From: Flectonema sp. DT1601
Lineage: Eukaryota
Direction: 5' to 3'
NCBI GenBank assembly: GCA_964019425.1
Contig: OZ025781.1
Location: 124,001-188,000, forward strand
Length of the DNA stretch: 64,000 nt
Part shown: piece by piece, positions 25,846-63,028 of the stretch
Numbering within the stretch: the stretch's first letter is position 1
How the letters are laid out: every line of letters begins with the position of its first letter
Notes under the pieces: model-generated
What the model saw: only the letters and a program-made list of their open reading frames with translations
What the model was told of the DNA's origin: nothing
The model's database searches: none
Position numbers and translations under genes: made by a program

Positions 25846-26652
25846 TTAGCATTGCTTCACAGCCATGTCTGTTATCCAATCATCTGTTTGATCAATAGCA
25901 GGAGGAGCACTTGGGACTACCTTAACATCTCGAGTGAAATTATTAACTTTTGAAAGCAAAAGTCGACGAACAGGTTTCGGCAGATCATTCGGTAGATCAT
26001 CAGCAGTACACTCACATAGTAATTGAAAGGTTCTTATTCCAGATCTACTTAGGCACTCTGCGTAATCCGATAAGTGTTCTGAATCCAAAAATTGAAACAT
26101 CTCATCAGATAAATGATACTTTTGAACAGATGAAGCTGACGGAGTCTCAACACTATCCTGTTGAGGCATTACATCAATAACTCCATTCTGTGAACTTATT
26201 CTTAGACTTCCTCCCTGTGACAATCCCAATTCTTTTAGTGTTTGTTCCGGAAGTAGTTCTACAGATGTTGGTAAGGACAGAATGATGTTGTCTGACTCTA
26301 GATGTTCATCTTTCTTTACTGCCAGTTCTATGACATCCTTTACAAGTAGACAACTGACTGGATCGAATGCGATGACAATAATCCGACCGTCAGAATTCTT
26401 TAAAATCATCTGAGGCTGTGGTGGAGCACTCTTTATTACCAAATGAATAGTATGGCTTTCAGGATCAGTAATCCCATATTCCCGAAGTGTTTTTCCATCT
26501 TCCATTGGCTTTCCTCGCACCACTAATCTCTGCAAACCAGCAGGAGGACCACCAGCATTAAAAACAGCAATACGAAGCTCTTCAACTAAGCTGTCTCCCT
26601 TAATCTTTACTGGGAACTCTTGACTGTCGAGGGTTTTAACGACGAAATCCAT
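25846..26652 (-). CDS. Ubiquitin-like x2 + SAM-domain protein
   Basis: Probable start MDFVVKTLDS at 26652 (the upstream in-frame part is a repeat shared with the S41 genes); QRLVVRGKPMEDGKTLREYGI...TIHLV (UBL), second UBL (EQTLKELGLSQGGSLRI), SAM-like FLDSEHLSDYAECLSRSGI...RRLLL. Confidence 0.75.
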   Translation of the reverse strand: MDFVVKTLDSQEFPVKIKGDSLVEELRIAVFNAGGPPAGLQRLVVRGKPMEDGKTLREYGITDPESHTIHLVIKSAPPQPQMILKNSDGRIIVIAFDPVSCLLVKDVIELAVKKDEHLESDNIILSLPTSVELLPEQTLKELGLSQGGSLRISSQNGVIDVMPQQDSVETPSASSVQKYHLSDEMFQFLDSEHLSDYAECLSRSGIRTFQLLCECTADDLPNDLPKPVRRLLLSKVNNFTRDVKVVPSAPPAIDQTDDWITDMAVKQC

Positions 26653-26671
26653 TTTTATTTGAGCTTGAAAA

Positions 26672-27604
26672 AGAAAACTGATGATGAGAAGTTGTGGATT
26701 CATCGTATTGACTGGATGGGTAACTATTTGCGGTATCGACTTAGTACGAATATCTGTGTTGATGTCCTGGAAAAGAAAAGTATTAATCAATTTAGTGACT
26801 AACATTAAAAAACCAACACAGCCCAGCAGGTAGCTGTCGGGATAACGGAGCTAGTTGTTCAACGCCTGGGCTCCCTGTTGGGGGAAGTCATCCGACGATA
26901 GAGTTGTTTACTTGCATCCCATTGTTATCGAAACAAACGAAATTTATCTTTACGGTGTGAAGTCGCTTGAACAATATAAAAAATTACTCAGAAAATGTCG
27001 GGAAGACGGCAAATTTTGATCAAAAAGAGAAGAGGGACTTTGTTTTCTTCGAATCCTTTTTCTTTATTGACTCAATTAATACTCGTCGTTGTGCGATGGG
27101 CAATGAGCTGAACGTGTCCAATCCCAGGCGATGGTTCAAAAGGTATTCACGGCAATTCAGTACTGGTTCCCTGCTTGTGATGTCATTCTCAGACATCTAT
27201 TTCTTTTCTGTTGACAGTTCCCTTAAGAGAGGAGCAAAAGAAAGAAAGCAAAAAAGGTTTCAGAAAAACACGAAAATGAAAACAACAACTGTTGTACGGT
27301 TCCTAAAGTTGCCGATAGCAGCAGCTTTTCATGTCTTTTTTCCCCTCCTCCGCCTTCAATTCTTTTGTTTGTTTTTTTACTGACCACTGACTACCTCACA
27401 GTAGCAAGTGAAAAGCTAATGAAATTATAGCAATAAAGGACAGACAGAGAGTAATCTCCCATCTAACCGTTGTTCTATACGCAAGTTAATGGTCTAGAAT
27501 AGTAGAGAAACTAAATGAGAGTTTTAAGGAATGAATTCGTGGAAGAGATGTCACCAAGGATGTGGAAACGTTTGTCGAGTTACGTTTCTCTCTTAAATTC
27601 TCAG
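26672..27604. repeat. Left copy of ~935-bp direct repeat bracketing the S41 array
   Basis: Near-identical to 54202-55139, from agaaaactgatgatgag to aaattctcag. Confidence 0.9.
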
Positions 27605-28055: not shown

Positions 28056-28266
28056 GTCAGTATCATTAATTTTAGAACAGAAAAGTGAGAATAAGAAAAG
28101 TAGAGATCAGTAAAAGAAAAGTATTCATTTCTGCAGTTTCCTAACATCAAAAGGGTAATAGAATATGTAGTTTTCAGGAGCCTTGATCTTATACTACTTG
28201 TCCCTTTTTAGGCCTTCATCAGTAAGTTCTAAGGGACTTCATTCTATGTTGAAGTTGCTTATCGTG
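28056..28266 (-). mobile_element. Solo degenerate copy of the Penelope-like element 3' end, including the hammerhead-like motif
   Basis: Closely matches 59383-59586; motif at 28158-28247 has small insertions (AGGCTCCT, GAAAAC); gtcagtat occurs on both sides (28056, 28283). Confidence 0.75.
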
Positions 28267-45380: not shown

Positions 45381-45673
45381 CAATTTATTATGTTTTCATC
45401 AACGAGAAGGAAAAACTTTGTTAGCTATTTAATCCAAACGTTGCTGTATATAATGAGTACTAATACAAGAAGACCCAATCTGTAACCGTCTCAAATGACT
45501 GTTTGGACTGTTGAAGTAGCCTCAACTGAAGGGAAGCTTCAACTTTATATAGAAAATTAAAGAACAACAAATTCTAGCCTTCCATCCTTGACCAAGCTTA
45601 ACAACCTATTTAAATAAAGAACAAAGTGAACCGAAATTTGAAAAATAAAATAAATACATAAATAAGATAAAAG

Positions 45674-45900
45674 TCAATACTGACAGAACACACGAAGAGC
45701 GTTGACGATTAACTCTTGTTCGGTAACAGCCTCGTCTTCTTTTGCTTTGAACCATGCAGACTCGATCCGAGTATAATTAGAAGACATGACTTCTTCTATA
45801 CACTTTGAATCAAGGGAATGAACGGTTAAATATTCAAAAAGTCGTTGTCGAGGGAGGCTCCTGAAGTCTTTCAAGAGCGTTACCAGAGTCAATTGACTAT
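45674..45900 (-). pseudogene. Degenerate remnant of the LINE C-terminal ORF at 62163-62903 (third remnant ~51055-51275)
   Basis: QLTLVTLLKDFRSLPRQRLFEYLTVHSLDSKCIEEV...YTRIESAWF aligns with QLALISLLNDLRSL...PRQRLVKYLSVHS...LDSKCKEEV...FSRIDPVWF; flank 45420-45660 resembles 61890-62070. Confidence 0.7.
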
Positions 45901-58293: not shown

Positions 58294-59367
58294 TTACATC
58301 ATCCTGTTTGGAATGTAGGAAGTGTTTTGTAGTCTGCGAAGTCCATCGTTCTCAACTTCAAGTGTTTTAATGTATTCAGACAACACTTGCTTCTCTCTCT
58401 CAATGACCGCGCAAGCCTTCGTCGCTTCGGCAAACTTCGTCCAATCAACTTTCATTGCCTGGCACCGTTCTTTCATTTTCTCGTAGCGGGATTCGAGTTT
58501 TCTGACTGAAGTTGCATCCGGTTGAGACAGCATGGAGGTGTCTATTGCGCGTCTTTTTTTACCACCGCCGTGGATGTGGGGATCGAGTGGACGGACTGGA
58601 TGGGTCTTCATAAGACCACCACTGTGAACTCTTTCAGAACAAATAGAACACATTCGACCTCTACAAAGTGTACAAACAACTTCAGCAGGTCGTTGAAGAC
58701 AATCTTCACACAGAGGTCGAGTACCAAGTGGTGCGATTGTTGCTGTTTGTGTTTGATGTTGGACGTCATCTTGAGCAGACAGCTCTTGTTGGATTCGAAG
58801 GCGTTCTGCCTCAGCGTACTCTGACAACATGTTGTCTCTATCTTTGATTGCTGATGTTGTTAGATGCTGTGATTTTACGATAGTCTCAGCCAATGCTGTT
58901 ACTTCTTCTTGAGTGCTGTGTTCTTTTGATTTAAATATCTGAAGCTCAAGTTCGTGACGAGACTCCATTTGTTTCATTCTGTCATTAGCAGCCTCCACTG
59001 CTTCATGAATACCTCTTTTGACTAAAAGTTGCTCAAGTCTGGCACTTGCGATTTCCGCATCTTTGCGTGCAGTTGCTGCCAGCAGTCCAAGATTCTCAAT
59101 AAGCCCAACTGCGAGTAAATTTGTTCCCTTGAATTGCGTAGACGAAGGCGTCCAAATGCAACCAAACGGCATCAGCATTTCATTATCGTTTGGGAACATG
59201 GATATTTTTTGAAGGTGTCTTCCGTGCTTCAAGTTCGATACCGTGACAGGTTGATTTTCAAGACCAGCTGCTCCCAAAGGGGAGCCCCTGGTTAGAATAT
59301 TACGATCTAAAGTCGCAGAAGTAAGCCCAACATTAACAACAGGGTACTCAACATCAACAACAGCCAT
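58294..59367 (-). CDS. Coiled-coil protein with a B-box zinc finger
   Basis: CEDC...VVCTLC...CSICSERVH...KTH B-box pattern flanked by coiled coils. Confidence 0.75.
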   Translation of the reverse strand: MAVVDVEYPVVNVGLTSATLDRNILTRGSPLGAAGLENQPVTVSNLKHGRHLQKISMFPNDNEMLMPFGCIWTPSSTQFKGTNLLAVGLIENLGLLAATARKDAEIASARLEQLLVKRGIHEAVEAANDRMKQMESRHELELQIFKSKEHSTQEEVTALAETIVKSQHLTTSAIKDRDNMLSEYAEAERLRIQQELSAQDDVQHQTQTATIAPLGTRPLCEDCLQRPAEVVCTLCRGRMCSICSERVHSGGLMKTHPVRPLDPHIHGGGKKRRAIDTSMLSQPDATSVRKLESRYEKMKERCQAMKVDWTKFAEATKACAVIEREKQVLSEYIKTLEVENDGLRRLQNTSYIPNRMM

Positions 59368-59482
59368 TGGGTAGTTATTTAGTTAGTATCATTAATTTTA
59401 GAACAGAAAAGTGAGAATAAGAAAAGTAGAGATCAATAAAAGAAAAGTATTCATTTCTGCAGTTTCCTAACATCAAAGGGTA

Positions 59483-59569
59483 ATAGAATATGTAGTTTCA
59501 GGCCTTAATCTTATACTACTTGTCCCTTTTTAGGCCTTCATCAGTAAGTTCTAAGGGACTTCATTCTAT
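59483..59569 (-). ncRNA. Candidate non-circularly permuted hammerhead ribozyme
   Basis: CUGAUGA 59544-59538; stem II AGGCCU/AGGCCU; GAAA 59499-59496; stem III GUAGU/ACUAC; GUA site; stem I CUUA/UAAG; extra 7-bp stems GUCCCUU/AAGGGAC and AUAGAAU/AUUCUAU. Confidence 0.65.
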
Positions 59570-59648
59570 GTTGAAGTTGCTATCGTTCAAAGATAAAAAT
59601 CCATCGGAGCTCGCCAGGATAGGGCTAGCAATGTTTATTTGCTTTTGC

Positions 59649-60458
59649 TCAATTTGAATTTTTGACGTCTGGTCGTTTCACTATTACAGTCGAGTTAATG
59701 GATGAGTCGTCATCCAATTTCCGTTTTACTTTATCATCGCATACCATCAAAGGTCCTATATTCGCAGGTGTCATTGTAACATCCATATCAGTCTGAGCTT
59801 TTAATGGTATCATATGGAAACTATATTCTGTAGTTTGGTACATCTTGTCAAAATGGTCGAAAGGGAGTCTTAAATCTTTTGTGCCTTTAAGAATGTCTCG
59901 GATGATCATGGACTCAAATGAGACTAGCGCAACAATAAAGTGAGTCATCCTTGTTTTCGCTTTATGCAGACTAAGTGCTGCGGCTGCTTCAGGATAATCG
60001 AAATCTGCAGGGTTAACGAAGTACTCAATTCTCCTGTTGAATTTAGTCATGCAAGCCATGTTAAGTACTTGTAGCGAGAACCAACCATCTGGTGATGGTT
60101 TATGCTCTGAGTTGTTCGGTTCTACTTTAAGAGATTCTTCATAAAATCGCTGTTGGTAGTTTTGCAGAAAACTGAAGTTAATTCTATCGATATATAAATG
60201 ATCTGCAATGAAGTTGAGCGCTGCCCATCCGCATTCTCCACCGAGAAGACCTTCTCCTGATGTTTGATGTAGGGATGGTGGAAATCGTTTATCCAAGGAA
60301 TGGCTTGTAGAGCCCGTATGGTTAATTGTATCCTTTTCGATGCTTAATGGGACTTTGTGACTAAACTTCTCAAAAGTAAGGTTGATACGTCGACGCATTG
60401 CAGCTGCTGTATTACCATCATCAATGTGAGAGCTAATGAAGCGGCTGCTCTGATATTG
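59649..60458 (-). CDS. Josephin-like (ataxin-3/JOSD, papain-fold) cysteine protease domain, probable frameshifted C-terminus of the RT ORF
   Basis: ECGWAALN (Cys 60231-60233), DGWFSLQVLNMA, His 59940-59942, Asp 59895-59897 15 residues later, EYSFHMI; frame open from 60458 and overlapping the RT frame. Confidence 0.65.
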   Translation of the reverse strand, partial: QYQSSRFISSHIDDGNTAAAMRRRINLTFEKFSHKVPLSIEKDTINHTGSTSHSLDKRFPPSLHQTSGEGLLGGECGWAALNFIADHLYIDRINFSFLQNYQQRFYEESLKVEPNNSEHKPSPDGWFSLQVLNMACMTKFNRRIEYFVNPADFDYPEAAAALSLHKAKTRMTHFIVALVSFESMIIRDILKGTKDLRLPFDHFDKMYQTTEYSFHMIPLKAQTDMDVTMTPANIGPLMVCDDKVKRKLDDDSSINSTVIVKRPDVKNSN

Positions 60459-61888
60459 TCAGATTTATAGCCCCGGTTGAGTAATCTATAAGTTACCGCT
60501 TCAAGTTCCTGTAAAAAATCTGCCTGGTTGTTGCAGATTTTTAAAGCTCGTAAGATCATGGTGGTAAAGATACCTGAACCCATTGATTCTTGAGCTGCGG
60601 AATGCTGATGGGTAAACCTTGTTGGCGTAATATGCCAACCCCTGGCTTTGTCGTTAACACTTAAACGAATCCATCGTTTATTTGTGCTAGTGATCTCTAT
60701 TCGGATACGAATTCCTATATAAGAGACATCATCGATATTATTCGAAGTATCAGTGTAATCCATTGAGTATAGACTTGCTGGTGGAGGGTCACAACTCCAG
60801 GTGAGGAAGTCGTCGATGTATCTACACGACTGGTCATGTTGCCGAGCTAAGTCTAGATTTTTTGCTTCAATTAAAGAATCGATATATGCGGATTCAACTC
60901 TATAGCAGTAGAGATTTGCTATATCGCTACTGGCGTTGCCACCCATTGGAATGCCTATTGTTTGTCTCCAAATATAACCTCTTAATGCAATAAAGGAGGA
61001 GTCAATACAGAATTCAAGTAATTTTTGACATTCTGCAAGCGCAAGAGACGGGAATCGTGTAGGGTCACTCGATTCAAGACGTAAGATATTTTTGAAACTA
61101 AAGGCTTCTTGCAGTGCTTCACTTACTTTAGTTTTAATAGCGTTGTGTGGTAGGCGGGTGTACATTGTTGTAAAATCAAAAGTCTTCGGGGATAATTTTT
61201 TCAAAACCATCAAATTCTGTTTAATCGAACTAGAGACTTCATCATCTGATTCCACAATCCAGTATCGTTTGAACCGTGAATGCATATCTTTCTCTTTTAA
61301 TATAGTCATCGCATTTTTAAGGATACTAGAGAGATGTTGGTGCGCATATGTTGTTGCTGTAGCGGGTGCAAGATTATGATCCTTATCGTATTGTCGTTGT
61401 TCCGCTGTACCCGTGAAGGATGAGACACCAGTAATCCATCTCATCCCGATAGCTGATTTGTGTAATTTAATCATTCCATATAGGTGTGGGAGTCGATCAG
61501 AGTGGCGGGCATTGATTGAAATGTTCATGTTCTTGAGGTTGGCTAGTAGAGTTGGTTCGTCTGATGTGATGCGTTCATAAGAATCACTTTGTAGCTGCTC
61601 TCGAAGTAAAAGCAAATAATTTAATTTACACATGTAACCAATATCGTGCTGTCCTTTGTCAACTTTAAGAAATACAAACTGAGATTGAAGATTCTGAAGT
61701 TCAGTCCATGCTTTATTTGATAATGGTGAGTCAAGAAAGCTTAAGTCTTTACTTAATTTAAGCTGCAATTGTTTAAGAATTGTGTTTTTAAAGATCGATT
61801 TAAAGTTATCGCCAACGTTCTTGTATGCGTGAGTTATATATTCAGTAATATCATTTTCAAGTGATTCTAATGCAGCTGATGGGTGCAC
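60344..61888 (-). pseudogene. Penelope-like reverse transcriptase with C-terminal helical (thumb/HTH) region, lacking its N-terminus
   Basis: KVDKG...YMCK, LPHLYGMIKLHK, FDFTTMYTRLPH, QTIGIPMGGNAS..IANLY, RYIDD (YIDD 60809-60820), RALKICN...EL...RGY; no ATG at the 5' end and an in-frame stop just upstream. Confidence 0.88.
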
Positions 61889-62162
61889 TGGGTTAGTTAT
61901 TTAATCCAACGTTACTGTATATTATGAGTGCTAGGTAACTCACAGTAACAGAGGACCCAATCCGTAGCCATATCCGAAGATTTCGCATGGATTGTTGAAG
62001 TAGCATCGACTGAAGATTAATAAATACCAATCTCCAGCTTTCCGCCTCGCCTAGCTTATTAAACTATCGAACTAAAAAAAAAAAAAAAATAATAATAATA
62101 ATAATAATAATAAATTACACTGATAATATACTAAAGCACTCGTAGAGCATTAGAAATTAACG

Positions 62163-62903
62163 CTAGGTTGGCAGCAGCCATTTATTTGAATCGAACCACA
62201 CTGGATCGATCCGAGAAAACTTAGAAGACCTAATCTTCTCCAGGAATGAATTAAAATGTTGGTTTTTGTTTTTATCCGAATTCAAGAAACAGTATATCTC
62301 CAAGTCCCACAAATGGTCGTAGACTTTTTCGATTTCATTTGCGTTATAAACTTCTGAGATCAGTTTTCTGACTTCCTCCTTACACTTCGAATCAAGTGTG
62401 GTAACAGTGGAATGAACGGACAAATATTTGACAAGGCGTTGTCGAGGGACCGCTCGACGTAACGGGAAGCTGTCGTGTAGGCTCCGGAGGTCATTCAAGA
62501 GCGATATGAGAGCCAACTGGTTTTCAGTAGCAAAAAACTTGTGTAGATGTTGACCCACATCCTCATCTTGATCATTAAATGCCATCTGTGGGAAGTGAAT
62601 TTGAACAAACATCTTAGTCTCCGGACATTTCGATAGTAAATGGTGAGTATCTGTATCTCTTTTATTACAGAAGAGACAGTTTGATAATCCCTTTCTTGGT
62701 TGCTTCACAAGCGGATGGTGTCCAGTCCTGAGGCGGGCGATTTGCATTTCTCCCTCACGGTTAAGATCTGGGTGGAAGCGTTGAGCACCTCTGCCCATTG
62801 TCGATAAAGAGTGCACATGTGATGTACTGCGCTGCTCGTACCAGTTTCTTCGGATTTTATTATTCACTGAACATTGGGTCATCCTGTAGTCAAACTTGAC
62901 CAC
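62163..62903 (-). mobile_element. 3' fragment of a non-LTR retrotransposon ORF (Ingi/I-group-like) with CCHC zinc knuckle
   Basis: IARLRTGH...CLFC...DTHHLLSKCP is the typical post-RT/RNase H motif of such LINEs; no RT upstream in the window. Confidence 0.7.
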
Positions 62904-63028
62904 TGTTAAGAAAAGGAATGATTTCCAACTTTAATAATAAAAAAAATAAAATAAAAAAGGAAATTTAACAGTAGATGTTCAATATCTACAACAGTTGCCC
63001 GAAGTCAGTCTTTTTTCGTCAAAAAATT

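Follow-up and report, generated by a model that had tools for sequence, protein, structure and literature searches.

The DNA analysed here, a stretch of 64,000 nucleotides (the window), carries on its minus strand a truncated copy of a Chlamys-type Penelope-like element (PLE) whose intact relatives almost certainly encode, in one continuous ORF, an endonuclease (EN), a reverse transcriptase (RT), a thumb and a Josephin-like domain. We believe, with a probability of roughly 0.65, that this C-terminal domain removes ubiquitin, be it from the protein of the element itself or from proteins of the host at the site of insertion. The positions of all features are summarized in Table 1. The window around the copy has the character of a eukaryotic gene region poor in introns, with a GC content of about 39%.

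Table 1. Features of the window copy, its flanks and a solo copy (positions in the window)
Feature	Position	Strand	Remarks
5'-truncated Chlamys-type PLE copy	59383..61891	minus	tblastn of P0047 on the window; 3' end common to 28056-28265
RT coding part	60446..61891	minus	linker end, DKG (61666), RT core, YIDD (60823), thumb
Net 7-nt deletion breaking the frame	60440..60450 (about 60443)	minus	private to window copy; comparison with listed relatives
Josephin-fold cysteine protease domain (predicted)	59793..60296	minus	168 aa
Predicted triad	Cys 60233-60231; His 59942-59940; Asp 59897-59895	minus	His followed by Phe
C-terminal tail	59652..59792	minus	poorly conserved, short basic stretch
Predicted type-CSG (non-circularly permuted) hammerhead, 3' UTR	59492..59559	minus	definition in PMC10085705
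Hammerhead core	CUGAUGA 59544-59538; GAAAC 59499-59495	minus	
Hammerhead stem II	59537-59532 with 59505-59500	minus	6 bp, perfect
Cleavage-site strand	59519-59510	minus	stem I partner 59548-59545; cleavage predicted between 59514 and 59513
Extra helix	59559-59553 with 59528-59522	minus	7 perfect pairs, also in minimum-energy fold
5' copy of likely target-site duplication	61889..61903	minus	15 nt; 3-nt overlap with truncation point
3' copy of likely target-site duplication	59368..59381	minus	14 nt, one base shorter
Solo 3'-end copy of same element	28056..28265	minus	96% identical

Two overlapping minus-strand frames make up the coding part of the window copy. A 518-aa stop-to-stop frame (60344-61900) contains the PLE RT motifs KVDKG, FDFTTMY, IPMGGNAS and RYIDD, and a 269-aa frame (59649-60458), which reads RFISSHIDDGN..., carries C76-GWAALN, GWFSLQV, H173-F and D188. 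A first-pass annotation had described PLE-type RT motifs followed in an overlapping frame by a domain with CxxxxLN, GWFSLQV and His-x14-Asp, and the motifs were found as it gave them. Pfam and PDB sequence searches with the RT frame and the 269-aa frame returned no useful match. The RT matched PLE proteins with an N-terminal endonuclease (E from 3e-75 to 4e-14), and the RT search returned a protein (P0024) that was 99% identical and ran uninterrupted through the junction of the two frames. The cluster of this protein holds 59 members, which are protein fragments and not a measure of element copy number, and the 15 listed include two full-length ones with single continuous ORFs, P0047 (1,350 aa) and P0041 (1,279 aa). 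The RT part of the window copy is 99% identical to residues 602-1085 of P0047, and the 269-aa frame matches the C-terminal end of the continuous ORFs at 99% identity; judged by this homology, neither frame is a chance open frame. A sister family of 24 members (15 listed) includes a protein of 1,367 aa, P0051, that is 61% identical. An ancestral ORF of the order (EN)-RT-thumb-Josephin had been proposed from the window, together with a search for full-length RT-Josephin copies with an N-terminal GIY-YIG; P0047 is such a copy, and the ORFs of P0047, P0041 and P0051 are all continuous.

The order in the intact proteins is an N-terminal extension, GIY-YIG without CCHH, CxC, DKG, RT, thumb, the protease domain and a short tail, and, since it fits the definition given for Chlamys in PMC8557442, we regard the element as Chlamys-type. 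The endonuclease, placed by its motifs at residues 237-335 of P0047, with R/H/E/N present, is N-terminal to the RT, and its Pfam match is weak (E 0.007 in P0051, no match in P0047). Its 110 residues include a single Cys in P0047 and none in P0051, so that both the CCHH and the CxxC zinc finger are absent, and it is the lack of these fingers that discriminates Chlamys from Naiad (PMC8557442). In P0047, CxC is found at 560 and VDKG at 678, and the distance from FDFTT to RQTIG is 71 residues, which is compatible with a fingers insertion, though unaligned to the PMC8557442 set. In a tree built without reference Chlamys sequences, the RT grouped with diplonemid PLEs and apart from Naiad-like rows. 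Of the Chlamys traits of 5' truncation, many copies and pseudo-LTRs, the first two were observed here (the two clusters comprise 59 and 24 fragments of protein). Those relatives of the RT and the protease domain that bear a name all come from diplonemids (Flectonema neradi, Diplonema japonicum, D. papillatum and Lacrimia lanifica), which makes a diplonemid host likely, and the family is young and diplonemid-type.

No Josephin match was obtained for the window frame alone in Pfam, in a PDB sequence search or in the ESM Atlas. Pfam PF02099 was not above cut-off for the window domain or its family, only a related PLE (P0033) passing it, and an ESM Atlas search with the domain only gave low scores (0.75-0.77) led by C39 double-glycine peptidases. 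A homologue search among 1.84 billion representatives yielded 15 matches at E<=0.001, a family with the signature ECGW that includes a Flectonema neradi protein (P0012) with a PLE RT in frame with the domain's first half, as well as a Flectonema LINE (P0022, APE plus RT) with the domain at its N-terminus. That this LINE carries the same subtype suggests an exchange between LINEs and PLEs. A third homologue search, for which the domain alignment served as query, contributed nothing beyond near-identical fragments, and no relatives of the domain were found in viral or metagenome contigs, nor any of the RT in viral contigs. In the 12-row domain alignment the Cys is present in 11 rows, and the His-aromatic pair and the Asp in 9 of the 10 rows that are long enough; a D. 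papillatum relative of the domain (P0015/P0095) has lost Cys and His. Profile A1 aligned to the Pfam-Josephin domain of P0033 with a probability of 91% (E 1e-6), and in the profile-to-PDB comparison ataxin-3-like was the best match, though a weak one (E 0.11 and 0.63). A control profile comparison with the window's ubiquitin-like protein gave nothing.

Structure prediction against Josephin had been set beforehand as a check, and a Josephin fold was predicted. The model obtained from the 12-sequence alignment reached a pLDDT of 86.6 and a pTM of 0.85 (a single-sequence model, with a pLDDT of 31.7, was not confident), and Josephins came first in three fold searches. When 48,161 solved chains were searched, the top five were Josephins, namely JOSD2 (Z 13.0, rmsd 2.9, 130 aligned), ataxin-3-like (Z 12.8) and three bacterial Josephins (Z 9.2-10.2); C39 peptidases (8.6-8.8) and other papain folds came next, with a top score of 8.8, and UfSP folds scored 7.7-7.9. 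All six Foldseek matches in the PDB at E<=0.001 were ataxin-3 or ataxin-3-like, with C39 peptidases close behind (from E 1.5e-3), and the only match at E<=0.001 in a viral structure search was a Josephin protein. We consider it very probable from the model that the domain adopts a Josephin fold, as had been suspected from its motifs. The predicted fold, the order Cys...His-aromatic...Asp and a G-aromatic-FS motif are shared with ataxin-3, ATXN3L, JOSD2 and the bacterial Josephin clippases. In contrast to the Josephin/MJD deubiquitinases, the domain has an ECGW signature of its own, shows 11-17% identity to solved Josephins and falls below Pfam detection, and it is a new Josephin subtype missed by Pfam. 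Its Cys-His-Asp triad, assigned by sequence and alignment, is intact, with an aromatic residue after the His. In conventional deubiquitinases, an aromatic residue at this place acts as the gatekeeper for Gly-75 (bioRxiv 2024.07.24.604956). The cleavage mode of the domain is not fixed by these features, since bacterial clippases share the Josephin fold and many of them retain the aromatic residue (same source).

Other proteases were found at the same C-terminal position in related elements. Of 8 longer RT relatives, 5 have a USP domain that exceeds the Pfam cut-off and shows the Cys and His boxes, and the sequence of a sixth ends inside the USP domain. Among 25 metagenome loci, six had Ulp1/SENP above cut-off (L004, L005, L010, L011, L016 and L022, the Ulp1 frame being broken off from the RT in L010, L011 and L022) and four had weakly supported OTU-like motifs (L002, L003, L007 and L009; Pfam E 0.02 and 0.05 for two of them, no PDB support). 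Two loci carried a C39- or Josephin-like domain (L001, L015) and two a degenerate-looking one (L012, L013), and the remaining loci were truncated or had no protease. We rejected L001 and L015 as Josephins, their alignment to the window domain not being significant and L015 scoring as C39. The RT tree had 30 rows, after dropping L013 and L022 as too short and leaving out redundant or fragmentary sequences (L004, L007, L008, L010, L017, L019, L021, L023-L025, P0003, P0026, P0028 and P0029). These rows were labelled as ECGW Josephin (3), Pfam Josephin (1), USP (5), Ulp1 (3), OTU-like (3), C39-like (2), degenerate (1) and none or truncated (12). The window family grouped with the USP-bearing P0001/P0005 (96/94) and not with P0033, and USP and Ulp1 each appeared in two distant parts of the tree. 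Constraint tests on 20 rows were borderline for a single Josephin clade (p-AU 0.052) and for a single USP clade (p-AU 0.047). Several protease families occupy the same slot in one clade.

We propose that the Josephin domain would strip ubiquitin and thereby guard the protein-RNA particle of the element against degradation. Removal of ubiquitin could alternatively serve to lift chromatin silencing, and between these two roles we lean somewhat towards the guarding of the particle; disruption of protein degradation is also the role that has been proposed for the Dualen protease (PMC8557442). In this reading, the domain is probably active on ubiquitin, and we infer a Gly-Gly-specific isopeptidase activity. 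The fold, the aromatic residue after the His and the chemistry shared by the families that replace the domain all suggest cleavage at Gly-Gly. Considering that several unrelated protease families fill one slot in one clade, the selected trait would be tag removal itself, and, since relatives swap or lack the domain, it would be an accessory counter-defence part and not a core transposition enzyme. Elements that bear such a domain likely use it to escape the host tagging system. Only tentatively, at slightly less than even odds, do we extend this to a wider proposal in which Chlamys-type elements have a C-terminal anti-ubiquitin slot repeatedly filled by unrelated Josephin, USP, Ulp1-SENP and OTU domains, which would point to a widespread ubiquitin/SUMO host defence, and in which the family also cuts its RNA with a type-CSG hammerhead.

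The presence of Ulp1/SENP at the same slot in relatives, the bacterial Josephin clippases next in the fold ranking and the low identity to eukaryotic Josephins would also suit a protease directed at a modifier that resembles ubiquitin (SUMO, NEDD8, ISG15-like, UFM1 or ATG8) or a ubiquitin clippase, but the eukaryotic ubiquitin-specific Josephins rank at the top, above the clippases and the UfSP folds, and we regard this explanation as unlikely. We likewise consider it improbable that the target of cleavage is the long protein of the element itself or another non-ubiquitin substrate. It is true that a papain-fold domain within a single long ORF could do so, that C39 peptidases are near in fold and that one Gly-Gly near residue 23 is conserved in both families. 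However, neither the stretch from thumb to protease nor that from EN to RT has a conserved Gly-Gly, a protease is lacking in many relatives with this layout, and the replacements (USP, Ulp1, OTU-like) are established modifier-specific enzymes, and self-processing is the weaker of the two roles that had been put forward for the domain from the window.

The removal of ubiquitin, which we prefer, presupposes a working enzyme, and selection bears on this point. We compared the domain with a 709-nt contig about 93% identical to it from a marine RNA library, an origin that is no proof of transcription. The domain showed 15 synonymous and 7 replacement codons (pN/pS 0.12, p 6e-7; 0.19 on the assumption that each of the 4 unlisted differences is a replacement), and the tail 2 synonymous and 7 replacement codons (pN/pS 0.92). 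Between the two families, the domain is 65% identical, the RT core 67% and the tail 42%; the basic stretch of the tail is a possible nuclear signal. The codon comparison shows the domain to be under purifying selection. Although the domain is dispensable in many relatives and degenerate in L012/L013 and P0015/P0095, this pN/pS, and a triad conserved between families 61% identical and in distant homologues, make a binding module without catalytic activity, or a neutral passenger acquired from the host, a very unlikely explanation.

The first-pass annotation had placed the domain in the -1 frame. The domain does lie in an overlapping frame of the window, but the junction has 14 nt there instead of the 21 needed by the intact protein, and the frame change is on this account a lesion of the window copy and not a feature of the element. 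Of the 11 family members listed that extend to the junction, 10 keep the frame, the remaining one (P0044) being the ORF of the window itself, and all 6 of the listed sister-family members that extend this far keep it as well, which refutes a separate downstream gene or a programmed frameshift, as the two overlapping frames might have suggested. Public contigs cover the window copy in pieces, none of them spanning the deletion, and an assembly error may be behind the frameshift, which leaves the conclusion unaffected. The window copy is dead and the element is intact elsewhere. By tblastn with P0047, the copy starts at residue 602 of the 1,350-aa protein, GIY-YIG and CxC being absent here, and a pseudo-LTR was not found in it. 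It is flanked by a direct repeat of 15/14 nt that is likely a target-site duplication, with a 3-nt microhomology at the truncation. In PLEs as a class, a nick made in the DNA by the endonuclease is where the RT copies the RNA, and this copying often ends prematurely. Nick-primed copying with an early stop fits both the truncation and the duplication of the window copy.

RNA of the 3' UTR is predicted to self-cleave through a type-CSG hammerhead, in which stem I has 4 bp, stem II 6 bp and stem III 4 bp plus an A-U pair. The combination of CUGAUGA, a 6-bp stem II and GAAAC is the sole such motif in the window and occurred in 1 of 20,000 shuffles; the cleavage-site strand lies between the core halves and pairs with the stem I and stem III partners, a pattern that was chosen post hoc and was seen in 10 of 200,000 shuffles. 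A general scan gave one match in 149,037 bases, of the non-canonical CSG order, and none in 5 shuffles. There was no hammerhead match in Rfam, the canonical form (type I-III) was not found, no exact match to the hammerhead occurred in viral contigs, and the minimum-energy fold did not show the pseudoknotted CSG form. A type III reading with the upstream GUC (59559-59557) was rejected, as it has a long stem III and no stem I; the strand in question forms the extra helix. In the solo copy, stem II and GAAA of the hammerhead are disrupted. The type-CSG hammerheads CSG-1 and CSG-2 were found by searching genome and environmental data (Eckert et al. 2023, PMC10085705), and the one predicted here resembles them in the block order C, S, G, in all core nucleotides, in stems I-III and in an extra helix joining stems I and II. 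In contrast to CSG-1 and CSG-2, for which the available part of that source names no host element, it lies in the PLE 3' UTR of a genome. A type-CSG hammerhead situated in a genome would enlarge a class of ribozymes of which two sequences have been described, and it would account for part of the hammerhead lack reported in Chlamys. If our reading is true, one compact intact element holds a protease together with a ribozyme thought to be missing from the clade.

Dualen/RandI LINEs with a Josephin-related cysteine protease were reportedly described by Kojima and Fujiwara in 2005. This protease (PMC8557442, PMC9977147) resembles the present domain in being Josephin-like and borne by a retrotransposon, but it accompanies a LINE RT with APE and RLE endonucleases. 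The fusion of such a domain to a PLE, of which the first-pass annotation knew no case, is not unprecedented, since three Chlamys families of Chara braunii (Chlamys-1/-4/-6_cBra) have a C-terminal Josephin-like motif of weak homology (Craig et al. 2021, PMC8557442). As described, these families resemble the present element in a Josephin-like motif after the RT, in a single ORF and in an N-terminal GIY-YIG without CCHH, CxC, DK(G), the RT and the C-terminal extension. The Chara elements differ in their length (about 1,800 aa, compared with 1,350 aa here), in a second C/H-rich motif not seen here and in a microsatellite target, whereas a likely target-site duplication and a rearranged hammerhead are present here; moreover, the nearest named relatives here are diplonemid, and neither Diplonema nor Euglen- is mentioned in the available text of PMC8557442. 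Further ubiquitin- or SUMO-type proteases carried by transposons are the Ulp1 of Mutator-like/VANDAL elements and the OTU of Helentrons (PMC13317346, PMC6431247). These are DNA transposons, whereas several protease families alternate here in one slot of one retroelement clade. The parts of the literature that were searched contain no description of a USP or Ulp1 domain in PLEs, nor of PLEs in diplonemids, a point on which the repeat supplement of PMC10161547 may bear. What is new here is the structural support, the diplonemid-associated lineage and the occurrence of USP and Ulp1/SENP (with OTU weakly supported) in the same C-terminal slot, and the intact 1,350-aa copies make the role of the protease testable. 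In D. papillatum, the USP-bearing relatives go under the name of a host protein (in 7 of 11 cluster members, 'ubiquitin carboxyl-terminal hydrolase 16'), and the counts of host deubiquitinases in this species are therefore likely to be inflated.

The C-terminal slot that is held by a predicted Josephin domain in the Penelope-like element of the window (the Penelope copy) is occupied by a USP domain in related proteins. The D. papillatum proteins P0002, P0004, P0081-P0083 and P0085-P0087, whose annotation reads ubiquitin carboxyl-terminal hydrolase 16, are Penelope-like elements with the layout GIY-YIG/RT/USP, and P0008 bears its C-terminal USP domain on a Naiad-like element with a CxxC-type endonuclease. 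The ECGW subtype of Josephin, to which the window's domain belongs, was found at the N-terminus of P0022, a Flectonema neradi LINE with APE and RT. In this P0022 resembles Dualen, although a second endonuclease like that of Dualen was not found in it by the Pfam scan.

Hammerhead parts occurred at the 3' ends of four loci with related RTs and an OTU-like, weakly supported domain, and also in L015, whose C-terminal domain is C39- or Josephin-like (see table). In all five the blocks run from the site to GAAAC and then CUGAUGA, stems I and III are paired, and a simple stem II is absent; stem I shows a compensatory change between L002 and L007. They represent another rearranged form, unlike the predicted type CSG of the window.

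Features of the window and hammerhead parts of related loci
Feature	Locus	Position	Strand	Remarks
Predicted type-CSG rearranged hammerhead	Window	59492-59559	minus	3' UTR of Penelope copy
Rearranged hammerhead parts	L002	4340-4416		OTU-type, 3' end
Rearranged hammerhead parts	L003	70-144		OTU-type, 3' end
Rearranged hammerhead parts	L007	5685-5768		OTU-type, 3' end
Rearranged hammerhead parts	L009	2353-2427		OTU-type, 3' end
Rearranged hammerhead parts	L015	3133-3216
LINE-like repeat, 3' fragment	Window	61892-62930	minus	Different repeat; weak zf-RVT match
LINE-like repeat, second copy	Window	near 45420-45895		Worn
B-box ORF	Window	58294-59367	minus	357 aa; coiled coil, B-box zinc finger
Tandem array	Window	29285-54380	minus	~6 membrane-anchored proteins, 850-950 aa
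ORF with array-derived 5' part	Window	25846-26850	minus

The end of the LINE-like fragment adjoins the Penelope copy, and the B-box ORF, which may be part of another mobile element, begins immediately past the 3' half of the probable target duplication of that copy. The array units are 88-96% alike in DNA, certain copies being broken, and their proteins gave weak matches to PDZ (CPAF-like) and S41 peptidase. The 5' part of a further ORF copies the upstream region of the array and is fused to a remainder that we take, by eye, to resemble ubiquitin-like and SAM-like domains.
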